A stretch of DNA of 63,973 nucleotides, the filler included, from Pseudovirgaria hyperparasitica (lineage: Eukaryota), in NCBI GenBank assembly GCA_010093815.1. It is 5 parts of 5 records of this genome, joined end to end, with 100 filler letters (N's around TTAATTAATTAA, not from the genome) between each part and the next. Parts side by side here need not be neighbours in the genome. Positions count along the whole stretch, not along the records: positions 1 to 17,235 come from ML996601.1; positions 17,336 to 45,239 come from ML996602.1; positions 45,340 to 61,118 come from ML996604.1; 2 more parts are not named here. One strand, given 5' to 3'. A program made the translations under genes and the position numbers. Positions 491-53,502 of the stretch are shown here, in pieces. Within the stretch, counting starts at the first letter, position 1. The number at the start of each line of letters is the position of its first letter. Below the pieces are notes generated by a model. It was not told the DNA's origin, made no database searches, and saw only the letters and a list, made by a program, of their open reading frames with translations.

Positions 491-521
491 TTATTAGTTA
501 AGGGCTACTCTTAACTAATAA
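491..521. promoter_or_regulatory. Shared palindrome copy 1 (LINE 3' end, contains the ORF2 stop)
   Basis: TTATTAGTTAAGGGCTACTCTTAACTAATAA. Confidence 0.8.
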
Positions 522-3451
522 TCGGGGTTCTCCCGGGGTTCTTCCGGTATATATTAGGTTACTACCAGCGTATACCGGGTCTCTTCTAGTATATATTTCC
601 GGGTCCACTAGTACTAGAGAAGTAGTAGATATATAAGCATCTATCGGGAGACGTCCTTAGGGTACTTATTAAGCTATTATATGATATCTAAAGTCTTCGT
701 AACGTGGATAAGCTATTACCGTTATATATAGAGGTTAGGGTATATAGCTAGATAGTAGCGTATTATACCTCTCCGGCCGTACGCCTTATACTATAGAGAG
801 ATATTAGGAACGCCTCTCTTATAGATATAGTATAGGAGTCCTATGGCGCCCGTTCGGGCTTAGATAAGTATAGATACTTAGGCTTTCGTTAGCCCTTTAT
901 ACATCTATTTACTCGGTTCCTTCTATGGCCCTTAAATCTACTCTAGGTACCTATTCTACTAGGAGGTCTAGTAGGCACGGAGTGTCTCTTTCTACTTATC
1001 TTAAGTCCACGACCGTATGTTTTTCACGAGTTCTTAAAGACTCTACTAGTCTAGAAGAGCGTCCGGGTTATCTCGGACTTCTTATACTACTTAGCTAGAG
1101 TTAGCTTCTATTAAGCACCTATATTATATTCGATTCCGGCCTATATATAGGAGTGCGCGGTAATATATACTAATTCATACACGTAGCGCGGCGAAAGTAT
1201 ATTCTACGTTTCCTATACGTTCCTATACTTATTATTTAGTAAAGTATACTACCCTCTATATCTAGTAGAAGTTATATATACTTATGACGTCTATCTCGCG
1301 TCGTAGTAGTACCATGTTAGTAGCTTTATATACGCCTAATATAAGACGGAGTATACGGTTCTATATGGATTTAAGCTTCATTCGCCTAGTCTATATAAGG
1401 GCCGTATACTAGCACTCGTGTCCGTACGTAAAGGCGGGTCGTGCTATAGATATATATAGCTGGCGTGCCTTATCCCGGGCGGTTCCCTATATAGAGGCTA
1501 TAATCCGTTGTATAGCGGCTTCTATCTAGAGGGCTCTAGAGACGGCGTATACTACTTATGGTCCCTATTTAAGCTTACTATCTAGTATAACTCCGAGCGC
1601 GCGTATACTTTATACTAGTAGTTCGTTAAATGCGTCGATTCGAGGGCGTTATTCGCCTTCCCTAGTTACCTATTTCCCTTAACGATTAATAAAGTATATA
1701 AGCTAGTATTTCTCTAGGGCGAACTTTACTCTATAGCGTTTTACCTACTAGAGGCACCTCTCGTGGTCCTATTCTAGTCGTCTACACGTTCGGTTGGTAT
1801 TATTATCGATAGCTAGGAGGTATATATTATTAGCGTATCCGACTACCTCTATATACTTTATTTCTTAAAGAAGGTCTACCGTAAAGAAGAGGAATAGGAT
1901 TAGAGAGATAGTACTCCCTTATAGGATGCCGTATACCGTCTCTTTATATTCGCTCTAGTACCTAGGGATATATATCTAAGTTGTTCTTCCTATGAGGAAT
2001 GACTATATAAAGCGTATAATCCATTCTAGTATTCGTCTTATCCGGAGGTTATAAATAAGTCTTATATGGTTTACCTTATTAAACGCTCCGGCCATATCGA
2101 GGGAGAGGAGCGATACTATCCGTCCCTGTTTCCATGCGGCCTAGACGACTTTAATAATATATTAGATAGCTATTATTAGGGAGCTATCTACCTTTACCTT
2201 CTAGTTCGGAGGGAGGAGATTATATTTCTATACCGCGGTACTTATCTTCTTTACTATCGTAGCCTCTAGTATCTTATCTAGGTAGAAGAGAAGGGCGATT
2301 AGTCTCTATCCCTTTAGGGAGTTAGGGCTCTTTCCTAGTTTCGGGAGTATAATAGTATAGGCGACTCGGAAGCTCTAGGGGTGGTACCCCTACGTAACGC
2401 ATGCTTAGAATATACGAGTAATAAGCGGTAGGGTCGCTTTTATAGTACTTTTTAGGTATCGATTTAGAATTCCATCTAGTCCGGGTGCTTTATTATTTAG
2501 GAGTATCTTAATAATATTAAGTATGTTCTCCTCCGTAACTTCTTCGGGGATATCTACCACGTATAGATATTTAGCGCCGTGAACGTCTAATAGGTCTACT
2601 AGTTCCGGGAGAGGGAACATGGCCTCCTATAGGGCCTTAGTTTTCTTAAGGCTCGTGGAGTATATTCTTCCCTAATATATTAGGGGAGGTATAAGTAGCG
2701 GGGGTGTCGGAGTGTCTACGCCCTTAGCCCATTTCGCTATACGCCATAGCCCTATTACGTATCATGTCTATTAACTAGTAATTATACGCCACTATTTACG
2801 CCTTTTGTTACGGAGGACTTTATCGCGTTATCGTATCGCTTCCTTCTATTCTTTCTACGACTCGGGTATTCTCGTACGGTATACGCGTATATATAGTCTT
2901 CGGGCGTCTTATCTACTTTCCCGTACTCGAGGAATCCCCTTTACTTCTAGGGGCCGGTATATTTAGTATAGTACGTGTTTATTTCTCGTATTCTAATATA
3001 TTTATAGGAGTATCTATACGGCCTAGTCTATAGCTAGGTCGTTAGATATATCGACTATAGAGGGATCTAGGATCGCCGATTCTAGGTCCTTTAGGTACTT
3101 TTCCTAGTCGGTGTCCTTCTATATCTATTATCCCCGTTGTTTATTCGGGATATACACGTTTATTACGGTTTCCATGTATTCGTGGTCGGAATCCGTCTAT
3201 ACCTAGTCTAGGTAGTAGTATTAGATCCGGTGACTAATATACTCCGTGGCGAAGGTAAGGTTAAGCGTAGACCCGTCTTTATTCTATTTATGTTTTTTCT
3301 ATATAACTTATTCTATAGGTGTAAGTAGATATAGGAAGTCGTGGTAGCGGGTACGTAGTTCCCTTACTCTAAGTTCTTCCCTAACCACGGCTAGGCCTCT
3401 CTACCATTAGTAGTAGAGGTTAAAGTCTCCTAGAAGGATGTGTTACTCTAG

Positions 3452-3822
3452 TGTGATGAGCCATCGCCACGTATATCCCTTTTTATAAATGGCTGTGTCC
3501 TTAGTATAGTAGTCGCGACGAACTTACAAGTATCTCTCCCAGGTATTATAAGTTCTCTTTGAACGCACGACTTCTTATTAGTTCTCTTTTACGATAGGAC
3601 GGGTCTATACAATACTCTTAATCAATTTATTAATAGCTAAGCCTAATAATCAATACCCATAGAGGCCCATGAACGTAAGGAAAGGTCGAATTATCGAATA
3701 TTAGTAATGGGGAAGCGTGTCATCTAGAATGACCAAGGAAAACGCCCTCCTTAAATATATAATGAGCTATGTAATCAAGCTAGGGACATATACATGTAGG
3801 GCTGCAGGAGCGGCCTTCCACA
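3452..3822 (-). repeat. 3' LTR (371 bp)
   Basis: TGTGATGAGCC...GGCCTTCCACA, matching 14496-14867 apart from transitions; polypurine tract GGCCGGGGAGG adjacent on the minus strand (~3826-3837). Confidence 0.92.
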
Positions 3823-3968
3823 TATACCTCCCCGGCCTATAGAACTACTACCCTTAGTAGTGTAGTAACCGTGTGAGAAACCGTGTGAAGAACGCCCAAA
3901 AGAAAGACCTTAATATGAATAAAATGCGCCCCTAGTAAACCTCTTAGCGCGGGTAAACCTTAGCCCGG

Positions 3969-4001
3969 ATTATTAGTTAAGGGCAGCCCTTAACTAATAA
4001 T
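3969..4001. promoter_or_regulatory. Shared palindrome copy 2 (end of Gypsy ORF3)
   Basis: ATTATTAGTTAAGGGCAGCCCTTAACTAATAAT. Confidence 0.8.
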
Positions 4002-6954
4002 TAGGTAGGTTTTTAGGCGCCTAATCTTAGTACTTAAGGTCGCGAGCTAGCTCCTAAAGAATCGTGTCGCTTATCTTAGAGAGGTTAGATTCCTCCTCGT
4101 CGGATAGTTCATTAGGCCTCTCCTATCTATAGAAGTTCTCTTCGACGTTATCTAGGCCCGCGTTAGGCTCGAATTTCTTAAAATTAATTAGCCGCTTGGC
4201 GGCGCGCGCCTCGTTAAATTCCTTCTAGAACGACCTATCCCCATAGACTAGCCTTTCCTACCTTACCATTTTCTTAAAGGTCTCCACGAATACCCTCGAG
4301 CCCTCCTTGAACTAGGCGTCTACCTTAGCTTTAAGTTATTAAGGACTTGCGTTAAGCCACGCAGCTGCCTCTTCTTTTACCTCCTAGCTATCCCATCTTT
4401 TACAGCCGACTAATGCGTCGCTAACGGCGTTAAAACTCGGGAGTTAAACTGCGGCTAGGAAGGCAAAAGGAATCGCGCTATATTTATTAGAAAATCCCGA
4501 CGGAGACGTAGGTCCCGGAGTTAAATTCCTGTGAGCTACTGCGAGTTATTCCCATGTACCTATTTCAGGCACTTCTATTATCATGTAATTAGGGCCAATC
4601 GCGATATACCATGGAAGCATTATACGTCTTCCACCCTTTGCGGGACCCTAGGCGCCGTGTATTATTAGTAGGCTGGAGATACGTACTTTAAGGGACTGGT
4701 AGGAGACCGGGACGAAGGGACCAAATCGTTTCCTATCGTCTACATTATAGATCTTGTCGTTAATAGCCGTGATTATACCGTTTCGATTAACCCCCTCGCG
4801 GAGCTTGGCCTTCGACCACTATTTATTTAAGAACTTATAGGAGCGGGGAACGATTATGGTATAGTCATTACTTCGTTCGTCGTCGAGACTAATACTCCCC
4901 TAGATTATGTTAAACCCGTGTCTATCGCTAGGATTAAGGATTCGATTAATGGCGTTATTAAGATACTTAAAACCCGTCTTATCGCCCCTATTCTAGGACT
5001 TCGCATAGTACGGGTACGAGATTAGATAGTAGTTAAGATTAGGCCGAAGAGCGACATAGGTGAGCTAGTAAAGTAGGCATTGCCTAATAAACTATTAGAT
5101 GTAGGAGTGGTATGTAGTTCGTAGCCAGCCGTAGTTCGATTTCTTATTAAACATGCGCTGGTGGTACTTGTACATATTAAATTCATCCCTCGCGAGTTCT
5201 AGAATACTCTTATTAAGTATAGAGGTCGTCTTTTTAAGTGGCTCGAAGAGCCCTTTAATATTAATACTTCCGGTACGTTCCTACTCGTCGAAGAGTTACC
5301 TACCTATTCTACCGTCCTCCTTCTAAATTACAAATGTAATACTAGTAAGAATGGTTTTAATATTAATGACTTACTTCGGGGTCTCTAGGGCCTAGTAATA
5401 ATAGATACCTAATGCCTCTATCGGATAAGGTGGCCGCGCGTACTTCGCGAACCAGGTATAGCGGTCCTTATAAACTTTAAGGGCCCCCACGTTATCTCTA
5501 AACTTATATACTATTTTAAGTCTCGCTACTAGGTTCAAGTAGGACACGCTAACGAGTATATTATTCTTTCTAGCCACGTCTTGGTAATGCTTATAGTAGA
5601 CTTTGTACGGAATAGCCATGTTACCTATCTACGCTTTCTAGCGTACTAGTAGGGCCATTCCCTTAATGCTCGTGAAATTCTTCTTTAATAATGTAGCTAC
5701 CTTAAAAGTCTTCGTTACTAAAGGCGCGCATCGACACTTCTTAGGCTCGTCCTCTTCCTCAACCGATGCCATCGTCTTAGGGTGTAAACTAAGAATAACC
5801 GGGGATTATCGTGCAGGCGCCCCTAGTAATTACTAAGGGCCGGTAGATAAGGTACGTCCGCGAGTAGGTTTTATCGGCGTGGCCGTAACGGGCACTAAAG
5901 ACGTTCTCGCATGGCCCGGTAAGGGACGTTTACTAGTAGTAGTAGGAGGAATACTTACTTTGAACGGATAACTAGCTTCGAAGAGACGATGTACTACTAA
6001 ACTAGAAGGCGTGCTTCGTGGAGGGGACTTCACCATAGGCGTTACCTACGCTAGTTTTAGCGATGGTAAGGTCTAAGGCGGAGGTGATATACTTATCTCT
6101 TTGATTTACAGGTAGTATTCGACGGGCCTATGAACTATTCTACTTATCTATGACTATTAACTAGCGGGGATAATAAGTCCCGTCTTATTATGGAACGTTA
6201 GTTTATTTTATCGGCTAGGGTAGTTCGAGAGTTACTAGAGAGATAGGCCGTCCTCGTTACTATCGCTAGCTAGGGTAGTATTAATATTAGAGCTCTAAAG
6301 ATATACCTTAATTCCCCTTCCCTTCTATCCCTGGCCGATTCGGGACCATAGGGATACGTTTAACTAGTTCCTTACTCTCGCCCATGTTCGCACTCGTGAG
6401 AGCGCTACTAGCTTTTCCATAAAGTTCTATGTTTACTAGAGCTATCCGAGGGCGGATTAGAGTAACTAGCCGTCGTTATTAGGGAGGTCTTTTCGCTAGT
6501 TTTATAGGATCGTATTTTTAGCTTTTAGGATGCGGGAGTTGGTATCTCTTCCACGACGAATTATCTCGTGGACTTCTTTCGGAATAGAGGAGTTAATCTT
6601 TGCCTTACTATACCCTATTGCGGCTCCTACTTCCTAGAAGAGGTTAACTATACTACTTAAGAGCTATTCTACGAGGCTAGTAATGTAAAGGAGATTATTA
6701 AACGTGTCTAGAATATAGTCCCATCGCTCTTGCGGGTCCTAGATAGCGATAATTTAGTTAATAGTAGACTCATTTATTTCCGTAGCTTCTATAGCCTATC
6801 CGTGCGGAGTAGTAGATGGCCTCGATACCATGATAGCCGTCGATGGCCCTACTTTAGCACTTACGACTCTTGACTAGGACCGCGTCTATCTTATTAGTAC
6901 TTAACGATCTTATAACTCTTCACGGGTAGGCGTTTTCTTCTTCGGCGGGGCTAT
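3994..6954 (-). pseudogene. Extra ORF (ORF3) inside the LTR element, ~980 codons, unknown function
   Basis: Starts (M)APPKKKTPTREE at 6954. ORF-track pieces 5833-6036 and 5392-5619 are in the same frame, which runs to TAA at 4027 or to the palindrome TAG at 3994. Confidence 0.7.
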
Positions 6955-7177
6955 TATTATTATTAGTTCTATTAGTAAGTTACGTTCTAAGGAGAGGTAG
7001 TTTAAGCGAGGCGGAAGTAGAGGAGGAGGTTTTATTAATTAAGGAGGTATAGAGAGGTATAAGAGGGAAGAGTTATATACTATCTTAAGTTCTCTTTTTA
7101 TGCCTCCTCGAATGCCGGGTATATAGTAATTTTTATGAATGATCCTTACCAACGGCCGTAGGCCCGTATACGTGTCG

Positions 7178-7279
7178 AATCTATGAATGAATATATACTA
7201 GGTATATAGGAAATCTATGAATGAATGTGTCTACCGGGTATATGGCGGAATCTATAAATAAATAGATACTGGGTATATT
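7178..7279. repeat. Three imperfect ~34-38 bp tandem repeats between pol and ORF3
   Basis: Unit approx. GAATCTATGAATGAAT...RGGTATAT, three times. Confidence 0.7.
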
Positions 7280-7665
7280 CTTATCCTTATAAGACTTCCT
7301 ATAAGTATCTTTTTCTTTTATACCTTCTCCTTCTTTTCTTCCTTATTAGTTTCTAACGGGGCCCGTTCTATAGTAACGAAATAGGCCTTCGATAGGTAGG
7401 CTTCGATTACACGACCGGTTTTAATGTATGGTGGGTGGAATTTCGCGTAAACGCCATTATATCTTCTTTCGAGCATTACTTGCTTTAATAATAGGTTTTA
7501 TTATTTTATAGTGATGATGGGGTTCATCATCCTCTTTCGATAATAGAGTTTATCGTCATGAGACTACTTTTATAAGCATCCCTTCCCTCCTTAAAAAAAA
7601 ACTTCTATCCTCTAGAAGGAGATATCGATTCTAGGGAAACGTAAATATTCCTCTCTATTAAAGCC

Positions 7666-10600
7666 TTACGGAGTAGGAATTACTACTTCCACCCGGGTTC
7701 GTGTGGCGTCGTCGAGGTATTCCGTGAGTTGTTTATAATAGTTTTCCTTATCGCTACTCTCCTTATTTTCCTCGGTAATTCTTCTAATTAGTAGTCGCGA
7801 GGGCTTGTCGTGACTCTCGTTACTCGTATTTCTCATGAAATATTTCTTTAACCTGTGGCTAGGAAACGTCCCTCTAAGCATGGCTCTATTAAGCTCCGCG
7901 AGCTTATAAGTGTAATTAAACATAGACTAGATTCTATATGGCCCCCTCTAATACTACCTTAGCTTTCGCCCTATGTCCTTCTATCGCTACGAGTTATATA
8001 GAAGGATAATTATATCGACTAGTAACGACTCTTAACAAAGGTAATGGTCGTTATTCTATGCCTCTCTTAATTCCTTACGCGTTCGTATCGTATAGATATA
8101 GGCCTCCTTAAGATCCTCGGATCTTCTCTTAAGTTATCTAGCTCGAAGAGCGAGTAAGTCGGACGTTAATTACACCTCGTTCTAAGGGAGTATTCGGAGC
8201 GACTTAAATTCGACTTCGATAGGCATGATTAGTTTATGGCCGAGCACGAGGTATACGGCACTATACCCTATACTAGCACGTGTCGTTATTCTATCTATCT
8301 AGATAACCGCATGGAGGTAGTCGGGCTAGTTCTTGAATCCGCTATTAGTTATCTTCGCGAGAGCATTAGCGAGTAGTATAAAACTTCTCTTAATAATCCT
8401 ATTTGCTCGGGGATTATACGTAGATATAACCTTCTAATAAATTCTATAGAGTCGGAGAAGCTCCTCTATGGCACCCATATTTTCTCTACTACCATTATAG
8501 GTGATTTTAGGAATGATTCCGTATCTATAGATCACGTTCTTAAAGAGGAACTTTACGACGACTATGGACGTGGCCGCCGTACATGCCTCCGCCTTAGTCT
8601 ATCCGCTTAGCTATTCTCGTATAGATACCACTTTACTATACCCCATAGAAGGTGGTAGTATCGTTACGTCTAAGTGCATTCTTTACCAAAGAATAGGCGT
8701 TATAACGTGGTAGAGCCCTTTATCAAGACCTCCAAGGAGCTTACTTCGTCGTTAACATTCGTTATAGGTTTTCACGTGCTATCGCACGTCTCTACGCATA
8801 TCTATCTACCAATACTTATCCTTAATTCTTCCGAGGGTCCCTTCGCTATCTCTATAATCTATCTCGTCGTGAGTGGTAGTAATTATACACGCCCTAGTAT
8901 TCGGATCCTTAATTACTCGTGTGTGTTAGCGATACCTATCTCCTCTCCGCTAGAGTATTCGGTCACGCATAAGGAACTTTAGGTAGTCGGTTATAAAGGC
9001 CTTATATACTCGGTCGGTTAGGTTAGTTAGCCTCTTGAGTGTAGTAAGATACTTCGTAATCCTCTACTATTTATTACTATATTTATCTATTAAGGGAGAC
9101 TTAATAGCGGTATAGTCGAGTATCCCTATCGTGTAATCTCTCCCGCTAATAGGCTTGATTAACGACGTCTCTAGTACGTCTATATATAGAGCCATGTCTA
9201 TAAACTCGTCTAGGTTAAAGGTAGGGACGTCTGGTAGTTCTTCTCCTTCGTGCATCCGTAAGATACTATCGGCGACTACGTTACGCTTTCTAGGTACGTG
9301 CCTAACTATAAAGTTCTATAGCTAAATCTACGCGAGCCACCTAGTAACGAGCGCCCCTAGTAAGTTAGTTACGGTACGGTTAATTTAAGCGACTAGAGTA
9401 TTCGCGTCTGTTTCTATAATAAAGTGCGTGCTATAGAGGTATTACTAGAACTTCTATAACGCGTGGAGGAGGGCTCGGTACTCTAGTTTCACGGTGTCGT
9501 AGTTTCTCTTAGCTTTTAACCATATTCCTCTATTATACCGCGATAGCTAACGTTTATAATTCTCGTTCTCCTATATTAACGTAGCCCTCTACCCAACGTT
9601 ACTAGAGTCTACTACTAGGATTATATCTCCCGTACCTGTCCCGTACCGTAACGTTATTAGTGCGGGAGTAGTGGTTAGAGCTATCTTTAGCGCGTCCATC
9701 GAGGTCTACTCCTTAGCTATCTACTACTAGGCCGATTTATTCTTTAATAGTGTAAATAGCGGCGATACGATAACAGCGTACCCGGGGATCCATATCTAGA
9801 AATATATATAAACGCCAAGGAAGGCTCGCATATTCGTCGTGTTTTTATAGGGTTTCTAGTCCCTAATAGTAGTAACCTTTTCACCACTCGGTCGCCTCCC
9901 TTTAATGCCGTAGACGTATCCTATAACGTTAGCGGCTTTAATATACTACTAAGTCTTCTTACTACTTAGGGCGTATCTAGCGCGCTCTATATCCGCGAGA
10001 ACCTTATCCACGTTAATTAAATATTCTAGGATATACCTACGAATTCCAGGTAGGGCCTCCTTAGAGTTATATTTCGTCGTGGGTCCTTTAATACCTAAGT
10101 CATCTAGGAATAGTAGAGCCCTCTCCGGGATGTGTTCTTATATAATAGTTAACATGATTCTAACGAACTAAGCTACTGAATTAGTGGCCCCTTAAGGTAA
10201 TATTATCCTATATAGTAATCCTAGGGGCGTTATAAACCCCGTTAAGTCTCGGCAATGCTCTGCTAATGGAATCTAATCGTATTCTAAGAAGAAGTCGGTA
10301 AACGTTAAGACGGCCATCCCCGTGAAGTACTCCGAGAATTCTTTATACGAGGGCGGCGTGGCCGCATTACGAATAGTAACTCGGTTAATTTCTATCGCCG
10401 AATTAATTAACCTATAATCTCGTTCCTTATTAACTTCCTTCTTCTTTTCCACGAGAAAATAGGCGTTTCGATAAGGACTACTATAGGGCTCGAGCCTTCC
10501 GCTATTAAGACGCTCTTTTAGGATTATAAGTACCTTCCTATAAAGGGCTCTAGGAATATTAAAGTTCTTAGCCTACCATGCCTTATGTTCTACCGTTCGG

Positions 10601-13600
10601 ATCTCCTACGGAGATACCACCTCTTCGTTAAATTTACTAAGGTATAAGAATTCCTATACTAGTACTTCCTCGCGATATAATAAGATTATATATAGTAACT
10701 TAAGTTCCGCGGGACGTAGCTCCATTCTAATCTTTAGCTAACTTATACGTAGAGGCGTTAGACGTGTTCCTAGCGGGATAGTTACCCTTCGAGGCTCTAT
10801 TAGCCTATTAAACGCGTTAAGGCCTAGGTAGACGGCCGGAAGAAGTGCCTACCGTGCGATTACTCGTTTACGCTAGTCTAGATACCCTAATAGATTCCTA
10901 GAGACCTTTTAGTGGGCTTCGGAGTTATCTACGGGGTGTACTTTAACTCCCTTTCTTTTATACATGGTGGCCATACTAAATCCCTTTAATACCCCGGATG
11001 AATACCGTCTTTAGAGGCCGGTAGAGCCTACTATAAGCCGTTCTATTATCATGCCTTATTTATATACGAAGGCAGCGTACCTTACCGCCGTAACTAGGGC
11101 GGCTAAGTCATCTTTTCTCGATAACCGAGTAACATTTTTAGGCCGGATTTTCTCGGAAAGTAACTCTATATAACTTATTTCTATATCCATATAAAAATAT
11201 ATTCTATCCCCTTCGTTAGTGGGTTTACCGGACCCTATTTAGTACGGATTATTAGTTAAGGGCAGCCCTTAACTAATAATCCGGCTTAACTCCGGCTTCT
11301 AGCGACATGCTCCGCTATATAGTTAGTCTCTAGCCACGGAGTTACCCTCCTTCTCTAAGACTAGAATATACTTGTCCGGACTAGTTTCGAAGGTTACACG
11401 TTCTTATCTATATACGGAGTAGACTATTAAGAGTACTTACCTAGAGGCTAACCTCTATACCGTAAGTAAGGCCTGCCTAGTATATGGCTCCCCTAGGATA
11501 AGGTTATAATTAAGTTCGCTATATACGAATATCGAAGTAGCCGTAACGATCCGACCTATACGGATAGAGTATTACTATACTATTCCCACGAATAGAGTAC
11601 TATACTAAGTAGCGCTAACTAAACTCGAGTTCTTTATATATGGTAGAAGCGAAGATATCGCTAGCCCGAGACGCCTCGTAGCATCTAGTCGAATACTATT
11701 TATCTACGCGCTACTATCGAATAGTACTATACTAGTCGCCCTTTTAGGACTAACTTCCACGGGGTACCTCGGACACTCGGCCACTAGCCTTACTATCCCT
11801 TCCTTAAGCTAATTAATATCTCGTTACGTGATGGCCGTCCCTATAGCATGGAGGGGTACTAATATATTAAGTTTATTTATCTCGGGAGCCATAGCATGGT
11901 CGTTTCTTCCTTTCTTCTCGGCTCTCTCCTCTTAAGCCTTATAGATCTCTCTAGCTATAAAGTCGGGGGCGCCCTTCTCGAATACCGCACGATATAAGTT
12001 ACTATTAAGGCTTAATAGTTCGCTAATAGTGATATTTATAGTTGTCCCTAGAACGCGCACCAGCCATGCTTCGCTAGCTTCTATACTTAGCCGCTATCCC
12101 TCGCGTAGATAGTTATTAAGCTTAACGCCTCGGATACGTGCCTTTTAACTAGGATTTAGGCCATCCCCTTTATCTATCTTATCCTTAGGCGCCGTTGGCT
12201 CTTATTTAGACGTTCTCTAGTCGCTACTCTTCTCGCCGTCCTTCTATTCCTCGATAATCCTTATATACTACCCTTCACGCATTCCGTAGAGACGGGCGAT
12301 CTTTCTTTCCTTAGTACGATTAGGTATACTCTTCGTGATTCCCCTTCTAGATATTACGAGCATAGCGGGCTCTTCTAGGGCCATCTTCTCGCGGATATAT
12401 CTATTACTAGCCACGTCGAAGCGTTCGTAGAATTCTATATATCTATCTTTCTTACTCTCGGGCGACGTGACTTCTTCTTCCGAATTACTATCCGCCGAGG
12501 CCTAGTAGGGACCCTTCATAGGTTTTATACTAATACTATATACTAGCACTCCCTATGAAGCGTTAATGTTTACTATAGACGTGGAAACCTTTACTCCCCC
12601 TCCGTACTAGCTTAGGCCGTTTTAAACCGTTACTACGTAGTTCCGGATAGCTTATAGGGTAGCTTATGGCTCTACCGAGGAGGGTGGTAATGGGATTTCT
12701 TCTCCGTTCGCCCCGAAACGCCCTTAGAATACTCGCACCCCATTAATATTTAGTAATCCGTCTCTAATATATCCTACTATCTCCGGATATCTATATATTA
12801 GGTAATCTCCTCCGCACGTAATGCACACGATCGGTCTTTAAGGCCTATCCTAGGCTATAACGCCTCCTTAGGAGTCTCGGGTGGAGATATATTCTCTATT
12901 CTATATATAATTCTATGGATAAACTTGCGTTGGTTCTATGGGCATGCCTCATGCTTAGGGGTGTATTAAAAGATTTAGCCTTCGCGCCTACTAGTTAATA
13001 ATAGCCGAAAGTAGCTTAGGTTTATACTTCTTAAGGGATAAGAATAAGGGATTAGAGGCAAAGTAGGACTTTATCTTAATTAACGTGAGGTCTAGTTTAC
13101 TAAATCTCTCTACCATCTCGTTAAACTTATCCGATCCTAGCGCGACGTGTACTTCGACTAGAGAGGGGTGGCTAAATTCATTAGTTCTTCTTTCTTCATG
13201 TGACTACTCTTCTAAGCTAGTCTTCTTACTCCCTATCTTTAATTTATAGTATATAGCTGTGGCTAGCTCTTGTGCGGCTAAGTGCTTATTAATATAAGCT
13301 AGTTCCTTAAGTGCTCTAGCCTTTCGTAATACGAAGTCATAGATAATTACCTAGTCGTAACTATATGCTTCCATCGTGAGTTGACATTTCTCTATAGCCC
13401 GAGCCTTAAGACTATTAGGCAGCCCTTCTAGGAAGAGCTCTATTCGCGAATACGAGCTTAGGCTTCCTTTAGCCGTAAGTTTCTCTATAATAATACGATA
13501 CCGGGAGTAGTATATAGGGAGAGAGTAGGATGGGTCTACTTTAACCATTTCCACGTATTTTCGGATAAAGTAGATGGTGTCTTCCTCGAGGGCGGAGTTA

Positions 13601-13836
13601 AATAGAGAGAATTCCTTTAATAATTCTTCACGTAGCGTGGCCTACTACTATTTCTAAAACCTATCTATTCCTTTAATAGTAGGACGGAGATAGTCCTCGT
13701 AGTATAACGGTAGGGAGGTTATCTTCTTATTAGACGGAACTTCGTAGTTTATATATATGTCCTCGTACTTCCGAAGGAAGGCCGTGATATTTATTCCTTT
13801 AAAGCGCTCGGGGGCTAGGGTAGGTAGAGGTACCAT
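7666..13836 (-). pseudogene. Gypsy gag-pol polyprotein, single frame of 2057 codons with RIP stops
   Basis: All minus ORF-track fragments (13836, 13554, 9255, 7923) share one frame. Motifs: NLILGEPY (end of protease), ATMYKKKGVKVHPVD, LFLDDLGIKG (RT, ~10090-10115), RNase H near 9600, integrase, GPY/F tail ending VEVVIPTP. Confidence 0.88.
11245..11283. promoter_or_regulatory. Shared palindrome copy 3 (perfect, 39 bp, in the PR-RT linker of gag-pol)
   Basis: CGGATTATTAGTTAAGGGC-A-GCCCTTAACTAATAATCCG. Confidence 0.85.
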
Positions 13837-13963
13837 CCTTCCTTATCGCGCAAATGCTACGAAGAAGTTAAGTATCTCTCTACGAGTTACTAGGTCGTTG
13901 TTTTAAGCTCCTATCGCACCATTACTAGTAGTAGGTGTGCTAGTGGAGACGCTGGGGGTAAGG

Positions 13964-13992
13964 TTATTAGTCAAGGGATTACCTTAACTAAA
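13964..13992. promoter_or_regulatory. Shared palindrome copy 4 (degenerate, Gypsy 5' leader)
   Basis: TTATTAGTCAAGGGATTACCTTAACTAAA. Confidence 0.65.
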
Positions 13993-14474
13993 GGTTAGCC
14001 TAATGCGTCTACCCATAACACCTATCATCCCTTCTCTATGTTAATTAATCCCTTTATAAGGTAAACTATTACTATCGTCTTCATCGATATAAGGTTTACG
14101 GTATCCTACTTATGTTATTATCTTCGTATAAGGCGTTCCTAAAGTGGTATACTCGTGTAGCCGTGTTTATAAATAACAGCTATGGTAGTACTAAACAGGT
14201 TATATTTATCGTTTTTGAACTCTTCTTTGCTACTTCATCTGGCCCTATTTTATATCCCATTCCCCTAAGACATTTTCGAGTCGCGCTATCACCCGTGTTA
14301 GCATGCGTATACTTTTTACGACTACTTTTAAGAGGCTAGCCCCTAGCGACTCCGGACTCCCTGTTTTCCGGACTCATAGCTTTGATCTAGTAAGTCTAGA
14401 CTACCTTATTAGGCACGCCATATACTTCCCCTAAGCTAGTTTCGGAGTCCTAATCTCCCCCTGTAAGTTCGTAG

Positions 14475-14491: not shown

Positions 14492-14495
14492 AAAT

Positions 14496-40699: not shown

Positions 40700-41631
40700 T
40701 CAGCCCCAACGAAGAATCGCTGTACTTGTCATTACCGTGAAAATTGCCGGTATGAGTGCGCCAATGCTTAGACCCTTCAAACTACCGTACCTCAAGTCAA
40801 TCCATGACGGGAGCAAATCCGAAATGCTACCAAGCTTCGATAAAAAGCCGAGTATCACCGCGAAGATCATAAGGCAAAGCAAACTGAAAAGGAGCGTCAC
40901 CCCCCCTCTGACCTTCTTCGAGTCTAGACCTGGGACACAGATCAAAGTGCGTTGGAATGNNNNNNNNNNNNNNNNNNNNNNNNNNNNNNNNNNNNNNNNN
41001 NNNNNNNNNNNNNNNNNNNNNNNNNNNNNNNNNNNNNNNNNNNNNNNNNNNNNNNNNNNNNNNNNNNNNNNNNNNNNNNNNNNNNNNNNNNNNNNNNNNN
41101 NNNNNNNNNNNNNNNNNNNNNNNNNNNNNNNNNNNNNNNNNNNNNNNNNNNNNNNNNNNNNNNNNNNNNNNNNNNNNNNNNNNNNNNNNNNNNNNNNNNN
41201 NNNNNNNNNNNNNNNNNNNNNNNNNNNNNNNNNNNNNNNNNNNNNNNNNNNNNNNNNNNNNNNNNNNNNNNNNNNNNNNNNNNNNNNNNNNNNNNNNNNN
41301 NNNNNNNNNNNNNNNNNNNNNNNNNNNNNNNNNNNNNNNNNNNNNNNNNNNNNNNNNNNNNNNNNNNNNNNNNNNNNNNNNNNNNNNNNNNNNNNNNNNN
41401 NNNNNNNNNNNNNNNNNNNNNNNNNNNNNNNNNNNNNNNNNNNNNNNNNGTTTTAGAGTCAGTGCTGGGCACCGCGTCAGCCAAAACATGTCTTACCTTG
41501 ATGATTGCGATGCCCTCGCGAAGCACTCTCTTATTTGTAGCAGCGTATAGCGATACTAGAAGACAAGCCAAGGCGGCAGCACCCAGGCCAACAGGCATGA
41601 GGCGCTTCCAGGGATACACGCGGGTCTTCAT
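40700..41631 (-). CDS. Membrane protein spanning an assembly gap (possibly SUR7/PalI-like)
   Basis: N-terminal TM segment LGAAALACLLVSLYAA and two C-terminal hydrophobic helices on either side of ~490 N. Confidence 0.3.
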
Positions 41632-43810: not shown

Positions 43811-46156
43811 CAAGATGAGAGATTCTCAAGCATGAATTTCATAATTTAATAGGCATATCTCATTTCGTTAGCCGAACACGCAGTCCGAAATTTCACGTGT
43901 CTGAGTGTTAAGCAAAGCAAACGTTCCAGCTCCCCTGCAGACTCATGCTCTTATAAAGCGACGGCATGCATCCCATTTCCAAGCCCATGTTCTCCACCTC
44001 GCCAACCATGTCCAGATTCTCAGTCTCGCTGTTAGCCAGCAAGTTGACCAGCGCTTCGTCCCGAGGAGCGCGGAATGACACAGGGATACGACACAGTCCA
44101 GTTGCATATTTGTTTGGCTCGCTCATGGAGTCTCACCCATTCTACATATACCAGACATTGCAAGAGGCTACAGCGCAATTGTCGAAGACCCCTTCGAACA
44201 GGAATTGGACTTGAGCGGGTACGGGACATGTCAAATCGCTGGAGAGACCAAATGACTACGGGAGTGGTTATATTACTTAGACTTGAAAATAGCGGTGCGC
44301 CCTCAATGGCGTGGAATCGGGTCTCGACCCTGCCTTACTTCAATAGGGATATATATATAAGAGTCGTCTAGGCGTACGAAAATCTTCTATATAAACTTAA
44401 ATTTACCGTATTTTTACGCTACTTCTTCACTCCAGACAGACTATCTACTAAACTTCAGTTCAACTGAGTCAACTTCAATTCTACTACTAGAACTGACAGC
44501 CCGGTTCAAATATACCGCGAGGTAAACTAAAGTGCTTCAGGAACTGAACTGTTTGTTTTATAGGATATTGACATGAGAAATCGAGGCTCTTACCCAACCG
44601 CAAGACGTCCCCAATGATGCTAAAATCGTCTTGAGCGCCCTTCCACATTACGGCTATCTTTAGTACCAGGAAGAAAAATGGGCCGGACCACAACCAGTGC
44701 AGTGTATTTATGTCTGCTATGATTATGAGACAGCAACAGACATCGAGCACATCATCTCCGAGATAGACTCCTGTCGAGAACAGCTGCATACGACGACCCT
44801 AGAGAGACTGGTAGAGGAAAACATGAACTTGGCGCAGCAGATCCGCATGTATCGTATGTATTGCGACTCGATCCAGCGAGCATCAGATATTGCAGTATTC
44901 CCCGGCGTGAACAAATTAGATTTAGCTGGATATGAATAAAAATCCATGTTACTGCCTGCCTTTAGTAAGTGTCAAATTGGAGAAGCAGCTTAACCAGACA
45001 GAGGACTAACCAAGGCGAGAAAGGAATACATGCGGTGTCAGGGCGTTGTTAGCAGGCATGATCATGGGAAGTGAGCATACTTTCCATGCCAATCGACTCA
45101 ACTTTTTATTAGACTGCCAAATGGGAATAGTATACAACAGCTGGCGTGTAAATTATTTGTAAAGCGTGATGCTTTCATGCTGAGTCCAAGCGGTGAATCC
45201 CTAAAACGGATCGAATAGGATAGTCAAGAAATCCTTTCCNNNNNNNNNNNNNNNNNNNNNNNNNNNNNNNNNNNNNNNNNNNNTTAATTAATTAANNNNN
45301 NNNNNNNNNNNNNNNNNNNNNNNNNNNNNNNNNNNNNNNTCGATTATAAAGAGTAATAGAATAATAAAAAGGGTGCTAGGGGTAGTAAGAGTAGCGCGCG
45401 TGTTTAGCTAAGGTAATATAATACTAATATAAGACGGGTTCTATCTATAGTATATTAGTATATATCTAATTCTACTAGCTATATAACCGTAGCGTGTATA
45501 TTTAATTAAGATATTAATATACCGGTATAAGCCGGCGTCTATCTATTTTATATTAGTATACGCCCGGTTCTACTAGCTATATTATTACTATAATTATATT
45601 TATATAAGATCTATACTAATAATTAAACATTTACTTATATACTTTACTTTCTCTATACTTTACGAAATTATATTATAATTAGTAAACGCGGTAACTTAAT
45701 CTCTACTATCTAAATATAGTTTTTAACTCTTATTACTACTAACTCCGTCTTATTACCTATAACCTAAGTTATATATAGGAATATATAAGTATAGCGAGAG
45801 TTACGACCGTCCTAGCTTAACTACTAGCTATAGAATAGCTAACTATAATATACACGTATAATATATAGAGGCCTTAAGTATTAGCGCCTTTCTACCGTAT
45901 ATCTAGTATCTCTAAGGCCTATACTAACTATCTAAAATAAGTTATAGTATATATAGAGATACTATTATTAAGATAGTACGCGGAAAAGTATTATAAGAGC
46001 TTAAAAATAGTAGTATAGACGCTACTATACTTATTAGAATAGTTAAGAAAACTATTACTAAAGAATTTAATTAGTATATCGCGGCTATAGATAGTAAGTT
46101 AGTACTAATAGTTATAGCTATAGATACGACGAAGGCTAAACTAGATATAGATATAT

Positions 46157-47198: not shown

Positions 47199-47790
47199 TA
47201 CATTAGGAAAGATACGGCGCTCCCAATGCTTCTAGGTCTCCTAGTACTTCTAAAGTTATCCTAAACGGGTCCCGGTACTTCTAGAGTTATCCCAATCCTC
47301 CCGGAGTCGTCCCGGTACTTCTAGAGTTATCCTAGTCCTCCTAGAGTCGTCCTAGTCCTCCTAGAGTCGTCCTAGTCCTCCTAGAGTCGTCCTAGTTCTT
47401 CTAGAGCCGTCCTAGTTCTTTTAGAATTATTCTATTAAACGTTAAGAAAACGTTTAATCCCGTTATATACTAGTATATATTGTAACGTCCTACTATATAC
47501 TAGTATAGTATAGTAATACTACTTTATATTATAACTATACTTTAAGTATCTAGGAATATTCTATAATATACCGGCGTATAGTATATCGGAATATTCTATT
47601 ATATACCGGCATATATAGTAACGTNNNNNNNNNNTAGTAACGTCCTACTATATGCCGGTATATAATAGTAATACTACTTTATACTATAACTATACTTTAA
47701 GTATCTAGGAATATTCTATAATATACCGGTGTATATTAGAATATTCCGTTATATACCGGTATATATAGTAATATCCTACTATATAACGGT
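47199..47790 (+). repeat. 25-bp terminal-like motif followed by 20-bp and ~158-bp tandem arrays
   Basis: TACATTAGGAAAGATACGGCGCTCC (again at 54777-54801); (GTCCTCCTAGAGTCGTCCTA)n at ~47230-47420; longer unit repeated 47480-47790. Confidence 0.75.
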
Positions 47791-48661
47791 ATAGAATAAA
47801 TATCTTATTTCTCTTTATATATAGATATATATAGATATATAATTATAAGTAAATAGTAGTTCGTATTTATACTACTATACTATCTAGTCTCTTAGAAGCT
47901 AATTAACTAACTACCTTACTTACTTCTATACTACTATATCTCTATAGAATTAAAGCTTACGCCTATTACTAGTATATTAGGTATAGCTATCTCTACTATA
48001 GCTATATCTTCTTTTTCTAGGTCTAAGGCTTATATTCTTATGCTTTTAATTATCTTATCTAACGTGGTAAGTCTAGCCTCGACCTCTAAATAGTCTAAAA
48101 TTAAAGTATACATATATACTATAGGCTGATATTATCTATAGCGATAATATCTTATACTTACCTATGGCCACGTCTTCTTATATAAGCATTAGTCTACTAT
48201 TACTATAAAACTAGTAATTATTAGGTCTTATCCTTCGTAGATCTATAAAGCTAATACTAGTAGAATATATAGAGAATCCGACTTAGTTAACCTAAATAAT
48301 CTATATACCTTATTTAATTCGGATATACTTAGGCCGGCTAGTAAATATACTAATATTTTCGCTTATATATATGGACGTAGTACCTATATATATTAGTAAA
48401 TTACGTTACTAGTAGATAGTATAATAATAATAATAATAATATTGTATAACTAGGTAGAGTAGTACTCTATAGGCCTATGCCTTCTCTAGTCTAAGCCACT
48501 ATATAAGAAGAAACCCCATAGGGAAAAACTTCCTTATGTCTATAACTACATCTCGTTAAGCCTCTGTTTCGTCTTAAGTATACAGCCATAGGGTACGCCT
48601 ATTAGCCTATAGCCTATATTACCGTTGTTTTACCCTTAGGTAGCACGTATAGGTGCGGAGG

Positions 48662-48692
48662 TTATTAGTCAAGGGCTACCCTTAACTAATAA
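48662..48692. promoter_or_regulatory. Shared palindrome copy 6
   Basis: TTATTAGTCAAGGGCTACCCTTAACTAATAA (keeps the unmutated GTCA). Confidence 0.8.
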
Positions 48693-51600
48693 TCGGGGTT
48701 CTCCCGGGGTTCTTCCGGTATATGTCGGGTTACTACCGGCGTGTGCCGGGTCTCTTCCGGCATATATTTCCGGGTCCACTAGAATTAGAGGAGTGGTAGG
48801 TGTGTAATCATCCACCGGGCGACGTCCTTAGGGTACTCATTAAGCCATCGTACGATATCGGAGGTTCTTATCGTGTGGATGAGCTTCTACCTTTGCGTGT
48901 AAAGATCGGGGTACATTACGAGATAGTGGCGTATTATGCCTCTCCGGCCGCACGCCTTATACCATAGAGACACGTCGGGGACGCCTCTCTTATAGAGGTA
49001 GTATAGGAGTCCTATAGCGCCCGTTCGGGCTTAGAGGAGTATAGATGCCTAGGCCTTTATAAGCCCTTTATACATCTATTTACTCGGCTCCTTCCATGGT
49101 CCTCGGATCCACTCTAGGTACCTATCCTACTAGGAGGCCTACTAGGCCCGGAGTATCTCTTTCTACTTATCTTAGATCCATAACTATATACTTCGTCCAA
49201 GCTCTCGAAGGCTCTATTAGTCTAGGAGGGTATCTAGGTTATCCTTAATCTCTTGTACTACTTAGTTCGAGTCTGTTTCTATCGGGCACTTATACCGTAG
49301 TTAAGTCCGGCCTATGTATAAGAGTGCTTAGTAGTATACGCTAACTCGCGCGCGTAGCGCGGCGAAGGTATAGTCTACTTTTCCTACACGTTCCTATGCT
49401 TATTATTTAGTGAAGTATGCCACCCTCTATGTCTAGTAGAAGTTATATATACTTATGACGTCTGTCTCGCGTCGTAGTAGTACCGTGTTAGTAGCTTTAT
49501 ATGCGCCTAATATAAGACGGAGTATACGGTTCTATATGGATTCGAGTTTCATTCGCCTAGTCTATGTAAGGGCCGTGTACTAGTACTCGTGTCCGTACGT
49601 GAAGGCGGGTCGTGCCATAGATATATATAGTTGGCGTGCCTTATCCCGGGCGGTTCCCCACGTGGAGGCTGTAATCCGTCGTATGGCGGCTTCTACCTAG
49701 AGGGCTCTAGAAACGGCGTATGCTACCTGTGGTCCCCATTTAAGCTTGTTATCGATTATGACGCCGAGTGCGCGTATGCTTTATGTCGGCGGTTCGTCGA
49801 AGGCGTCTATTCTAGGGCGTCGCTCGCCTTCCCTAGTGGCCTATTTCCTACGGCGGTTAATAAAGTGCATGAGTTAGTACTTTTTAGGGGCGAACTTTGC
49901 TCCGTGGCGCTTTGCCCATTGGACGTATCTCCCGTGGTCTTGTTCGAGTCGTCTATATATTTGGCTAGTGTTATTGTCGATAGCTAGAAGGTATGTGTCG
50001 TCTGCGTACCCTACTACCTCTATACGTTACATTCCCTAGAGGAGGTCTATAGTAAAGAAGAGGAATAGGATTAGGGAGATGGTGCTTCCTTATGGGATGC
50101 CGCAAGCCGTCTTCTCGTACTCACTTCGATATCCGGGGATGTATATCTAGATAACTCTTTCGGCGAGGAAGGACTGTATAAACCGCGTAATCCACGCGGG
50201 TATACGCCTCTTCCGTAAGTTGTGGATAAGTCTCGTGTGGTTTACTTTATCGAATACGCCGGCCATGTCGAGGGAGAGTAGCGTTACTACACGTCCCTAC
50301 TTCTATACGGTCTGGACGACTTCGAGGATATGTTAGATAGTGGTAATTAGGGAGCTTCTAGCCTTCGCCTTCTGGTTTGCTAGGAGGAGGTTATATTCCT
50401 ATGCTACGGCGCTTATCTTCTTCGCGATCGTAGCCTCTAGTATCTTCCCAAGATAGGAGAGGAGGGCGATTGGCCTCCATCCTTTCGGGGAGTTAGAGTT
50501 CTTCCCTAGTTTCGGGAGCATAACGGTATAGGCGGCCCGGAAGCTTTGGGGGTGGTATCCGTTCTTGATACATGCTTGAAATATATAACTAATGAGCGGT
50601 AGGGTAGCTGGTATAGTGCGTTTAAGGCACCTATTCGGTATCCTATCCGGTCCGGGTACCTTGTCATTCGGGAGTACTTTAACGGCGTCGAGTATATCCT
50701 CCTCGGTGACCTCTTAGGGGATATCGATTACGTCTAGGTATTTAGTATTATTAATATCTAATAGGTCTACTAGCTCCGGGAGGGGGAACATAACTTTACG
50801 TAAGATCTCCGTCTTCTCCGGGCTTATGGAGTATATCCTCTCTTAGTATATTAGGGGAGGCATTAGTGGCGGCGGTGTCGGCGCGTCTACACCCTTGGCC
50901 CACTTTGCCATGCGCTATAGCCCTACGGCTTGCCGTGTGTGTTTATCGGTAATCGTGCGCCATTGCTTTCGTCGTTTATTACGGAGGGCCCTATCACGAT
51001 GTCGCACTACTTCCTTCCACTCTTCCTACGCCTCGGTCGTCCGGATATGGTGTATACGTGTATATAGTCTACGGGCGTCTCTTCTACACTCTCGTATTTA
51101 AGGTATGCCCCTCGCTTCTAGGGGTCTGTACGTTCGGTATAGCACGTGTTTATCTCTCGTGACTTGGTATACTTAAAGGAGGACTTGCACGGCCTTGTCT
51201 ATGGCTGGGCCGTTAGATACGTCGACTGTAGAGGGGTCTAGAATCGCCGATTCCAGGTCCTCTAGGTATTTATCCCAATCGGTGTCCTTCCATAGCTATT
51301 TCCCACGTTATTCGTTAAGAGTGGAGACGTCTATTACGGTTTCCATACATTCGTGGTCGGAGTCCGTCTATATCCGGCTCGGGCGGTAGTACTATACTCT
51401 ATGGCTGATGTGCTCGGTGGCAAGGGTAAGGTCGAGCGTAGACCCGTCCTCGTCCTATTTATGTTTCCTCTAGGTAATCTGCCCTACGGGTGTAAGGAGG
51501 TATAGGAAGTCGTGGTACCGTGTGTATAGTTCCCTTGCTCTAAGTTCTTCTCTCGCGATGGCTAGGCCTCCCCACTACCTATGGTGGAGATTAAAGTCGC

Positions 51601-51988
51601 CTAGGAGGATGTGTTATCCCGGCGTTGTGGTACCCTCTAGTATATCGTCTGGCGTGAGCGATCGCTGTTAATTATAGATATTATAGATATGGACAGGCCC
51701 TATGCTTATCTAGAGATGTAGCGTCATCCGGAGGTCATCACGTTCGGTATAAGACCATTCTAAGAGCGGGATTGACTTATATATATGAAACATGACTCTC
51801 CTATCCGGGCCCGTAGGGTGGATGGTATAGTATCCTAGGTATGTTGTTAGCTTGTTGGTTTGGTAGTGTTTATATGGTTCCTAGATAGCTATTATTACGG
51901 CTCCTATCTCTTCTAGGAGCGTCGCTTGGTTTTCTCGTTTGTATTATACGTTCGCCTATATAATGATAAGTGTATCTTATGCCCTTAT
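48686..51988 (-). pseudogene. LINE copy 2 ORF2 (endonuclease-RT, 1101 codons, no obvious RNase H)
   Basis: AI*EPY, LGDFNLHH, DSDHE, GYADDTY (~49992-50011), C-terminal Cys/His motif; ends PDY* inside the palindrome. Confidence 0.88.
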
Positions 51989-53469
51989 TAGGTGCTAGGG
52001 AAAGTTCGAGTCTATATGTTAGTGGCGCTAAGGCGTGATTGTCCTCGCGCGGTAGCGGCTTTAAGTATACCCCGGGGTCGGCCTATCTTTCTCTATATAG
52101 TATACCATTGCGCGTTGTCCTCTCCCCTTCGGGGGGTGGTTACCGGATTCATAAGTAAAGTTAGGGATGGCGGCGAGGGCAGCGAGGGCCTTATAGCTTG
52201 GTATATCCACCTCGCTTCTCTTGTCTTCATCGCGTTAATATATTCTACGATCTACTTACGTTTCGTGCACGTTACCGACTAGGATAGGTGTTTCCCGTCG
52301 TAGTTAGAGTACTTGGCGGTGTCCCTGTCTCACGTCTCGTCGCTCTGCGTCTTATAAGGGCATTCCTTGGTGTTATGGCCCTGTTTACACCACCCATAGG
52401 CGGTCTTCTAAGAGCACCTCTGCCTAGTATACCTATATCCCTAATAGTTAAAGCATTGCGTCATTGCCCATGCCCTGTCCTATGGTTCCGCCGTGAGTAG
52501 CTCTCCTTCGGCTAGGAAGCCCTCCTATGTTATTCTATAGGCGAGAGCGGGGTCCCTAAGCTCTACTATTATAGTAGAGTGCTTTTTCGATTTTATCTTA
52601 ATCCCTTGGACGTTCTTCTACCACGCCTTCGCGATCTTGATCCCGGGGTACTTCGGTTCGTTAGATCGCTCCATTCGCTTAATGTTATCTTCTCCGATAA
52701 CGTGTCCTCGGACAGGGACGGTATATATCTATATCGGGTACGTGGTTACGCGGACGGACGCGCTAGGGAAGATGTCGTTAATCGCGTTCGGGTCGCGCGA
52801 GATGGTCTACTAGGCCGTGTTAGTAGTGGTAGTTAGTACTATACCTCCTAGGGTGAGTTTGGCGGCCACCACATTTAACCATATCCCTTTCTATTCGTTA
52901 ATCTTATTCATAATGTCCTTTAGGGACGCTTACTAGACTTATGCGAGTACTTCTTTATCCTAGATAGCGACTTATATACTACATGCCCCGTCCGTGGGTG
53001 CCCTTGGTATTTTAGCTAACATGGCTGTTCCGCTTATGGGTGCGGCGACCTATGCCCACGTGCTAGGGCGTTTTCCCTGGGTGAGGCCCTCCTGGATCCT
53101 CTATAGGCTAGCCTCTATGCGATCTAGTCTAGATTCTAGGTCTAATTCCGGCGCCTGTTTTACTCCTACGGTAAGCTCCCTAATATTCCGGACGAGGTTC
53201 CGGAAGATACTAAGGAGGGCCGTTTCTCCCTTCTCGACTTCCCTCTCTACACGTGCTACCTAGTAGTTAATCTTATCCAGGAGGGTCTCCCCGGGTGGGG
53301 TCCCCTCCGTCTCCATTATCTATGGTATTATACGCCCTTGGTTGTTCGTCGTTTGTTAGACGGGGGTTTGATCGTCCTAGGATATGCCGCTATATGGCCG
53401 TTTCTACCGTACTAGTGTTAGGGGTATACCCGGTGGAAGCCGGGGTACGTCGGTGCCTAAGGCCGCTAT
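51988..53469 (-). pseudogene. LINE copy 2 ORF1 (494 codons)
   Basis: Starts (M)AALGTDVPRLPPG; QCFN..GYR knuckle region near 52440; stop/start overlap with ORF2. Confidence 0.78.
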
Positions 53470-53471
53470 AA

Positions 53472-53502
53472 TTATTAGTTAAGGGTAGCCCTTAACTAAT
53501 AA
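53472..53502. promoter_or_regulatory. Shared palindrome copy 7
   Basis: TTATTAGTTAAGGGTAGCCCTTAACTAATAA. Confidence 0.8.

Follow-up and report, generated by a model that had tools for sequence, protein, structure and literature searches.

How does one and the same short palindrome come to stand at the edges of open reading frames (ORFs) in two unrelated retrotransposons? The question is raised by a 63,973-nucleotide stretch of DNA from the fungus Pseudovirgaria hyperparasitica (assembly GCA_010093815.1; "the window" below, five parts of five records joined by filler), in which a 31-bp palindrome is repeated in a long interspersed nuclear element (LINE) and in a Ty3/Gypsy retrotransposon with long terminal repeats (LTRs) that is nested in one copy of that LINE. 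The original prediction for this DNA offered two explanations, a host-factor site, insulator or hairpin recruited by both elements and a tiny insertion that parasitises them; its anatomy of the elements is borne out, and its interpretation is partly supported, by the analysis described here. The explanation that we favour, to which we give somewhat less than an even chance, is that both master elements acquired a tiny palindromic insertion ahead of their amplification and that it persisted only where it did no harm. This is a lead rather than a result, drawn from a single window and from contigs of one species.

The 31-mer TTATTAGTYAAGGGYWRCCCTTRACTAATAA is present at positions 491, 3970, 11249, 16688, 48662 and 53472 with at most one mismatch each, where chance expectation is 0.00 (100 shuffles). 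Written as TTATTAGTYAAGGG-NNN-CCCTTRACTAATAA, these six intact copies comprise five with no mismatch and one with a single mismatch, and when C is merged with T and G with A, to cover changes of the type made by repeat-induced point mutation (RIP), all six match without any mismatch. The window is ascomycete DNA mutated by RIP: TpA/ApT is 1.4–1.8 and (CpA + TpG)/(ApC + GpT) is 0.06–0.6 in the first 18 kb and in the stretches between 46 and 64 kb, and the ratios are normal at 18–28 kb, which together are the signature of RIP next to intact genes. No further match to the merged motif was found in the 64-kb window with up to three mismatches allowed. Seven copies had been predicted; six are intact at the places given for them, and the seventh (13964–13994) is degenerate, with an exact left arm, three differing bases at its end and a 25-bp core that has 3 mismatches (0.03 such matches expected). 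The starts predicted at 3969 and 11245 are those of the longer perfect palindromes of the LTR element, which measure 33 bp (3969–4001, around a 31-bp core at 3970–4000) and 39 bp (11245–11283, with 19-nt arms, around a core at 11249–11279). Perfect arms are 14–19 nt long, giving the repeat the self-complementary body of MITEs (miniature inverted-repeat transposable elements) and of repetitive extragenic palindromes (REPs). Weak half-site matches at 1676, 7032, 51308, 59571, 59734 and 61071 were taken as chance; the three that were inspected are A+T-rich sequence with no repeat structure.

The centre triplets of the copies are CTA, TAG and CAG, each one RIP step from CWG, so the ancestor likely had 15-base arms around a single A or T. 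Its pre-RIP form was probably TTATTAGTCAAGGGC-W-GCCCTTGACTAATAA, with 15-base arms, one central base and sometimes, to either side, 1–4 further bases that pair. At the Y/R positions 2 of 14 arms (in the copies at 13964 and 48662) have kept a C or G, the rest differing by RIP-type change only, and these retained bases support the proposal, made at the outset, of an ancestral pair of inverted sites 11 bp apart, TTAGTCA-N11-TGACTAA. The heptamer TTAGTCA/TGACTAA, which we take to be an AP-1/Yap1-type basic leucine zipper (bZIP) site, is intact in two of the 14 arms and is a candidate bZIP site. TCATCAG was also considered in place of TTATTAG for the pre-RIP outer arms and is unlikely on a rough estimate from the partial RIP of the second LINE copy. 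Hairpins with 10- to 18-bp stems are predicted for all copies, with predicted stabilities, flanks included, of −18 to −30 kcal/mol (z −3.9 to −6.2), and such folding fits MITE- or REP-like repeats, as expected; Rfam 15 gave no match at gathering score in the whole window.

The first host is a non-LTR retrotransposon, as judged from a predicted apurinic-type endonuclease followed by reverse transcriptase (RT) in one ORF, the absence of LTRs and a simple-repeat tail. Its copy 2 (48421–53737, minus strand; from self-BLAST, Pfam and a frame print) is uninterrupted and RIP-mutated and consists of a 5′ untranslated region (UTR) of ~235 nt, palindrome, ORF1, ORF2, palindrome, a 3′ UTR of ~240 nt and a (TTA)n-type tail. 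CCHC knuckles were seen by eye in ORF1, and ORF2 matches Exo_endo_phos_2 (1.3e-11) and RVT_1 (3.5e-23) in one minus-strand frame only (stops read as X), with no Pfam family in the other five frames. Copy 1 lies in two parts, also on the minus strand: the 3′ part (250–3445; ORF2 end, palindrome, 3′ UTR and tail), found as well by tblastn of ORF2 relatives, is 78.7% identical to 48421–51616, and the 5′ part (14876–16953; 5′ UTR, palindrome and ORF1) is 70.9% identical to 51627–53737, and the two copies differ by 21–29%. A simple repeat, (TTA)n-type on the coding strand, ends copy 1 at 228–272. The palindrome opens with TTATTA, two (TTA)n units, and closes with six bases that are their complement, which resembles the LINE tail and may be coincidence.

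The second host is, by its LTR pair and its predicted order of protease, RT, RNase H and integrase, a Ty3/Gypsy element, 11.4 kb long, which lies on the minus strand at 3456–14863, nested in LINE copy 1 (LTRs, Pfam, tblastn and frame print). Self-BLAST gives 364-bp LTRs at 3456–3818 and 14500–14863 with 94% identity, and between them gag, protease, RT, RNase H, integrase and a further coding region, ORF3, all share one minus-strand frame. Pfam reports RT_RNaseH at 1.3e-11 and Integrase_H2C2 at 2.5e-5, the latter at 24.8 bits, 0.7 under the curated 25.5; pol relatives align across the Integrase_H2C2 region despite this sub-threshold score, and tblastn places residues 98–1245 of the pol relative P0002 on 10968–7675 (1,150 residues aligned). 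The C-terminal ~590 codons of ORF3 (4001–5769, minus strand) resemble a large uncharacterised family of proteins that are typically ~900 residues long, of which 744 were found at E 0.001 or better; no Pfam family was found for ORF3 or these relatives. A FRHID ... LPHGS ... RRT pattern runs across 40 aligned relatives, and the AlphaFold model of one of them, P0054 (predicted local distance difference test score 79.6), resembles PhyH-type Fe(II)/2-oxoglutarate oxygenases (Foldseek E ~1e-5, target TM 0.5–0.65). The oxygenase-like fold belongs to the C-terminal domain, the relatives have the HxD...H pattern, and the copy in the window carries RIP-type changes in its HxD motif. ORF3 was considered as a nuclease or recombinase that acts on the palindrome, and this was rejected on the grounds of no Pfam match, nothing below E 0.1 in a search of PDB sequences and the oxygenase-like fold; a protein atlas search with a natural ORF3 relative gave only weak leads (0.83).

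Both elements code on the minus strand, which the original prediction does not mention, and between them they have the palindrome at five non-homologous positions, two in the LINE and three in the Gypsy element. When the two were compared by blastn-short, every match with E < 1e-3 was the palindrome (nine for LINE copy 2 and eight for copy 1), and the next-best matches were 14- to 15-mers with E 0.05–0.2, so the statement first made by eye, that the elements have no other similarity, holds. Convergence cannot account for 31 identical bases at five unrelated sites, so the sequence was copied. In the LINE the 5′ palindrome (16688–16718 in copy 1, 53472–53502 in copy 2) ends 2 nt before the ORF1 start in both copies; in copy 1 the minus strand continues from it with CT and the ATG (16685–16683), and in copy 2 the start codon reads ATA, a RIP-type change. 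The 3′ palindrome (491–521 in copy 1, with one extra C>T change in its right arm, and 48662–48692 in copy 2, with one un-RIPped C/G position kept) contains the ORF2 stop, the reading frame terminating as ..E-N-P-D-Y-TAG within it; the frame print thus bears out both LINE placements of the original prediction. For the LTR element, that prediction had one copy in the leader, one inside gag-pol and one at the end of ORF3, and the latter two are confirmed: the copy at 11249 lies in frame between protease and RT and reads IIS-x-GLPLTNN (..IIS-Q-GLPLTNN.. before RIP), and in the copy at 3970, which lies ~150 nt short of the 3′ LTR, the frame takes the TAT-TAG phase to give ..L-P-N-Y-TAG, the end of ORF3. 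The degenerate copy reads LTFS-x-GNPLTNN in the open phase and lies 34 nt past the first in-frame ATG (14028–14026), which puts it in either the leader or the first gag codons.

Such placement is not indifferent to reading phase. The palindrome has stops (TAG, TGA) in two of its three phases on either strand and leaves one phase open; both copies within the Gypsy polyprotein frame are in that only open phase, the protease and RT frame continuing unchanged across the 11249 copy, and both copies at ORF ends are in the TAT-TAG phase. Among 14 aligned ORF2 relatives, whose tails vary in length, conservation ends with a motif 27 residues short of the LINE stop; the likeness of ORF3 to its relatives stops at 4228, ~75 codons before the ORF3 stop; and 10 aligned Gypsy relatives have pol proteins that give no alignment until the RT region, 3′ of the copy at 11249, which places that copy in a non-conserved junction. 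Taken together, the variable tails and the non-conserved junction mean that all copies in coding regions are where an insert would do least harm. This argument leaves the copy 2 nt before the ATG unexplained. A reading of the palindrome as a mini-intron (GT.., a branch-like CTAAT, .. AG) was rejected since the span of 35–39 nt is too short.

Public contigs and more distant relatives were searched for other states of these sites. Two contig sets, X1 and X2, are two runs of one sample, which is possibly the source sample, and two others, X3 and X4, are from another study with the same species label. Contigs that match the first 17.1 kb with at least 80% likeness number 51,374 in X1 and 17,863 in X2, so both element families are very abundant. 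The palindrome is in all LINE copies seen. Copies that lack it, which had been suggested as a check on insertion, did not turn up at any of the five sites among the X1/X2 contigs (nine indel rows, none of them there), in sets that are possibly the source and whose contigs tend to break at these places. Relative to the window, the LINE copy in X3 and X4 shows chiefly A>G and T>C differences and is therefore un-RIPped; contigs of these sets join 3444 to 14871 without the Gypsy insert and include the LINE 5′ palindrome (they end at 16717/16718 and restart at 16689), and contig 25 of X4 covers 458–674, across the 3′ palindrome of LINE copy 1. The X3/X4 copy and one contig each of X1 and X2 are missing 276 nt (786 joined to 1063, with CACA between), and the X3/X4 copy has 12 extra letters behind 2620; LINE copies with the 276-nt loss look like a deleted subfamily.

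In a protein search for an un-RIPped copy, the best relatives were 44% (Gypsy) and 37% (LINE) identical, and the peptide encoded by the palindrome was in none of the 35 relatives' proteins checked (21 from the Gypsy search and 14 from the LINE search). L001, an intact LINE relative with 31% protein-level identity through P0023, is too distant to serve as an empty site; it lacks the motif, and the edges of its ORFs have no strong palindrome. With this one relative examined, the palindrome would not be an old feature of the LINE clade. The 25-bp core had no match in metagenome, prokaryote-genome and viral contig collections. Searches of the literature by sequence string and by words found no description of such a motif (the string matches are unrelated by title and abstract), and the closest published case is a palindrome carried by fungal GalEa Copia elements, the "conserved hairpin site" (PMC5445492).

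In the reading that we favour, the palindrome would be a discrete module, a very small insertion without coding capacity and akin to a MITE or a REP, that was copied into five positions of two unrelated and still active retroelements. Palindrome-bearing master copies would then have retrotransposed to very high number and multiplied it passively, after which RIP killed the elements. With stops in two of three phases only three placements would be tolerated: outside ORFs, for example just before the LINE ORF1 ATG; in the one open phase inside poorly conserved linkers such as the gag N-terminus and the protease/RT junction; and in variable C-terminal tails, where the TAG of the palindrome may have become the new stop of LINE ORF2 and Gypsy ORF3. 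A TA-duplicating DDE transposase that acted on the 25-bp core and added 27 nt, or nine codons, is a possible copier. Arrival by insertion, the pre-RIP sequence and the filtering of positions by selection are what we infer. In favour of this half of the original prediction, the palindrome is a discrete module, identical at five independent positions, it lies only at permissive positions or in permissive phases, and it is lacking from L001. Several observations weigh against it. Target-site duplication is not clear, as the flanks are inverted and not direct and the possible TA..TA around the 25-bp core consists of a dinucleotide that is itself self-complementary, and no pair of filled and empty sites was found at any of the five positions among the X1/X2 contigs. 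A search of the window with the originally proposed C/T and G/A degeneracy confines the motif to the two elements, with seven copies in their ~22 kb and none in the other ~42 kb (genes, pogo-like and Plavaka remnants), a distribution that uniform random insertion does not predict; no partner element with matching ends was found in the window, where the ends of the Plavaka element were not examined; and random insertion into a 235-nt UTR is unlikely to have stopped exactly 2 nt short of the ORF1 ATG. At 25–39 bp, moreover, it would be shorter than any MITE known to us.

The confinement of all seven copies to two very successful families and the abutment on a start codon are better explained by a useful cis-element that both retroelements acquired and kept, either an RNA hairpin (acting in translation, packaging or dimerisation at the edges of ORFs) or a double inverted bZIP-type site, although the copying step would still be required; we regard this as possible and, on balance, doubtful. 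In the bZIP variant, TTAGTCA-N11-TGACTAA would be an internal stress-responsive enhancer. In either variant, carrier lineages would have out-competed others. The stable predicted hairpins, the bZIP-type heptamers in the probable pre-RIP form, the lack of any palindrome-less copy among the contigs examined and the copies 2 nt before the ORF1 ATG and 34 nt past the first gag ATG all agree with such a function, and there are precedents in the palindromic site that is common to different Copia families within a fungal species (PMC5445492) and in the Gcn4 sites inside Ty1. Function, however, leaves the spread of 31 identical bases to five places unexplained, and an identity of that length is more than convergence on a factor site can account for; non-RIP changes have reduced the copy near gag to a stem of 10 bp, Rfam has no match, and the one LINE relative examined, L001, lacks a counterpart. 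Scanning ribosomes, too, are expected to be hindered and not helped by a stable hairpin lying shortly before a start codon.

The palindrome might instead be the joint of module exchange, as a site-specific recombination site or a hot spot of RT pausing and template switching, which we think improbable. Its copies do bracket blocks of both elements (5′ UTR / ORF1-ORF2 / 3′ UTR in the LINE; leader / gag-protease / RT-RNaseH-integrase-ORF3 / 3′ end in the Gypsy element), 31–39 bp with inverted arms is a size and symmetry like that of FRT or loxP, and both hosts replicate via RT. In neither element, however, was a recombinase domain found (the Pfam matches are confined to endonuclease, RT, RNase H and integrase, and the fold of ORF3 is that of an oxygenase-like protein), and no LINE/Gypsy similarity beside the palindromes marks an exchanged block. 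No strand-changing or palindrome-to-palindrome joint is listed among the contigs, though such a joint would hardly be visible where contigs break at the palindrome. That the palindromes are crossover sites, used by a recombinase or by template switching between co-packaged RNAs paired via the palindrome, at which LINE and Gypsy elements trade blocks such as the oxygenase-like ORF3, is very improbable. Palindromic linkers are a known kind of assembly contaminant, and the scaffold does carry artificial N44-TTAATTAATTAA-N44 spacers, so a library linker built into the assembly, or chance coincidence, had also to be weighed; with none expected by chance, with RIP-type changes in the copies like those of their surroundings, the same positions in two LINE copies as divergent as these, copies in frame with ORFs and the LINE 5′ copy present in contigs of a second study (X3, X4), such an origin is contradicted, is hardly credible and is in practice excluded.

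The remainder of the window provides the setting. The four artificial spacers (17236–17335, 45240–45339, 61119–61218 and 62746–62845) have stops in all six frames, and contiguity across them is not assured; further N runs are at 40960–41449, 47625–47634 and 55242–55421. Between RIP-mutated repeats lies an intact 794-codon ORF of a Spok-like family (SPOK2_N plus a kinase-like domain; 22388–24772, minus strand), which over 94% of its length is 100% identical to an NCBI protein of Pseudovirgaria hyperparasitica, a dothideomycete, and to which paralogues in the same species are 71% and 57% identical. A stretch that resembles a pogo/Tc5-type DDE transposase (18144–19345, minus strand) is free of RIP mutation; it was considered as the source of the palindrome and rejected, as no terminal inverted repeats were found around it in its interval and it lacks the motif. 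A heavily RIP-mutated element at 56122–63929 has direct repeats of 1,084 bp (56122–57205 and 62846–63929, 92% identity) and, at ~58.7–59.3 kb on the plus strand, a Plavaka transposase domain, with no palindrome copy there. Self-BLAST also finds inverted and direct repeat pairs of 67–97% identity within 25–44 kb (25712–26333 with 43700–42956, 34202–34708 with 37651–37144, 34773–34932 with 40601–40442 and 31443–32197 with 32934–33688).

As a selfish insertion, the palindrome would be a parasite of 25–39 bases that codes for nothing, lives inside retroelements and is propagated when they are reverse-transcribed. It would be the counterpart, in a eukaryotic nucleus, of the bacterial REPs and Rickettsia palindromic elements (RPEs) and would be smaller than known MITEs or short interspersed nuclear elements. 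If it is a recruited hairpin or factor site, unrelated element classes would have acquired one ready-made control module, which would offer a handle on the expression of active elements in a RIP-proficient fungus. In both cases the palindrome, with a stop in two phases out of three, illustrates how so small an insert can set new ORF ends in the element that carries it.

Short interspersed palindromes as such are a known kind; the present one is common to a LINE and a Gypsy element. Fungal mitochondrial GC clusters, PstI palindromes and double-hairpin elements are small mobile palindromes that lie at gene borders and sometimes inside genes; they are G+C-rich, whereas the present palindrome is nuclear and has A+T-rich outer arms. 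RPEs are tolerated in frame inside ORFs. Like MITEs, bacterial REPs and RPEs, the palindrome described here is short, non-coding, hairpin-forming and dispersed to many sites, and REPs of 20–40 bp are located at gene ends, according to PMC3733652. Unlike REPs and RPEs, it is in a eukaryotic nuclear genome, and it differs from all three in being seen only inside two retroelements and in having no demonstrable target-site duplication, empty site or partner transposase, its 25–39 bp being below the usual MITE size. Gcn4 sites are present inside Ty1, and TGACTAA/TTAGTCA-type heptamers in the transcribed part of a retroelement are like such bZIP (AP-1/Yap1/Gcn4-type) sites; a factor site, however, requires 7–9 bases, whereas the identity between these unrelated elements runs over 31 bases, the spacer among them. 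FRT, loxP and integron attC sites have inverted arms around a short centre, are ~30–40 bp long and bracket coding cassettes; they differ from the present case, where no recombinase and no recombination product was found. The CHS (Conserved Hairpin Site) carried by GalEa Copia elements of fungi, as described in PMC5445492, is a hairpin-forming palindrome, CTGATCAGT, or CTAATTAGT after RIP-like change, which in extended form is kept between different element families in some species and which stands directly after the 5′ LTR in place of the primer-binding site, with 9 + 9 bp, in one Copia clade; the palindrome here is 31 bp long, is present two or three times per element at ORF edges and is common to a LINE and a Gypsy element. 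Finally, the hairpin in the 3′ untranslated part of the LINE is like the 3′ UTR stem-loops that, according to PMC5135761, the RT of "stringent" LINEs recognises, whereas here it lies ~240 nt from the 3′ end and is present also before ORF1 and three times in an LTR element.

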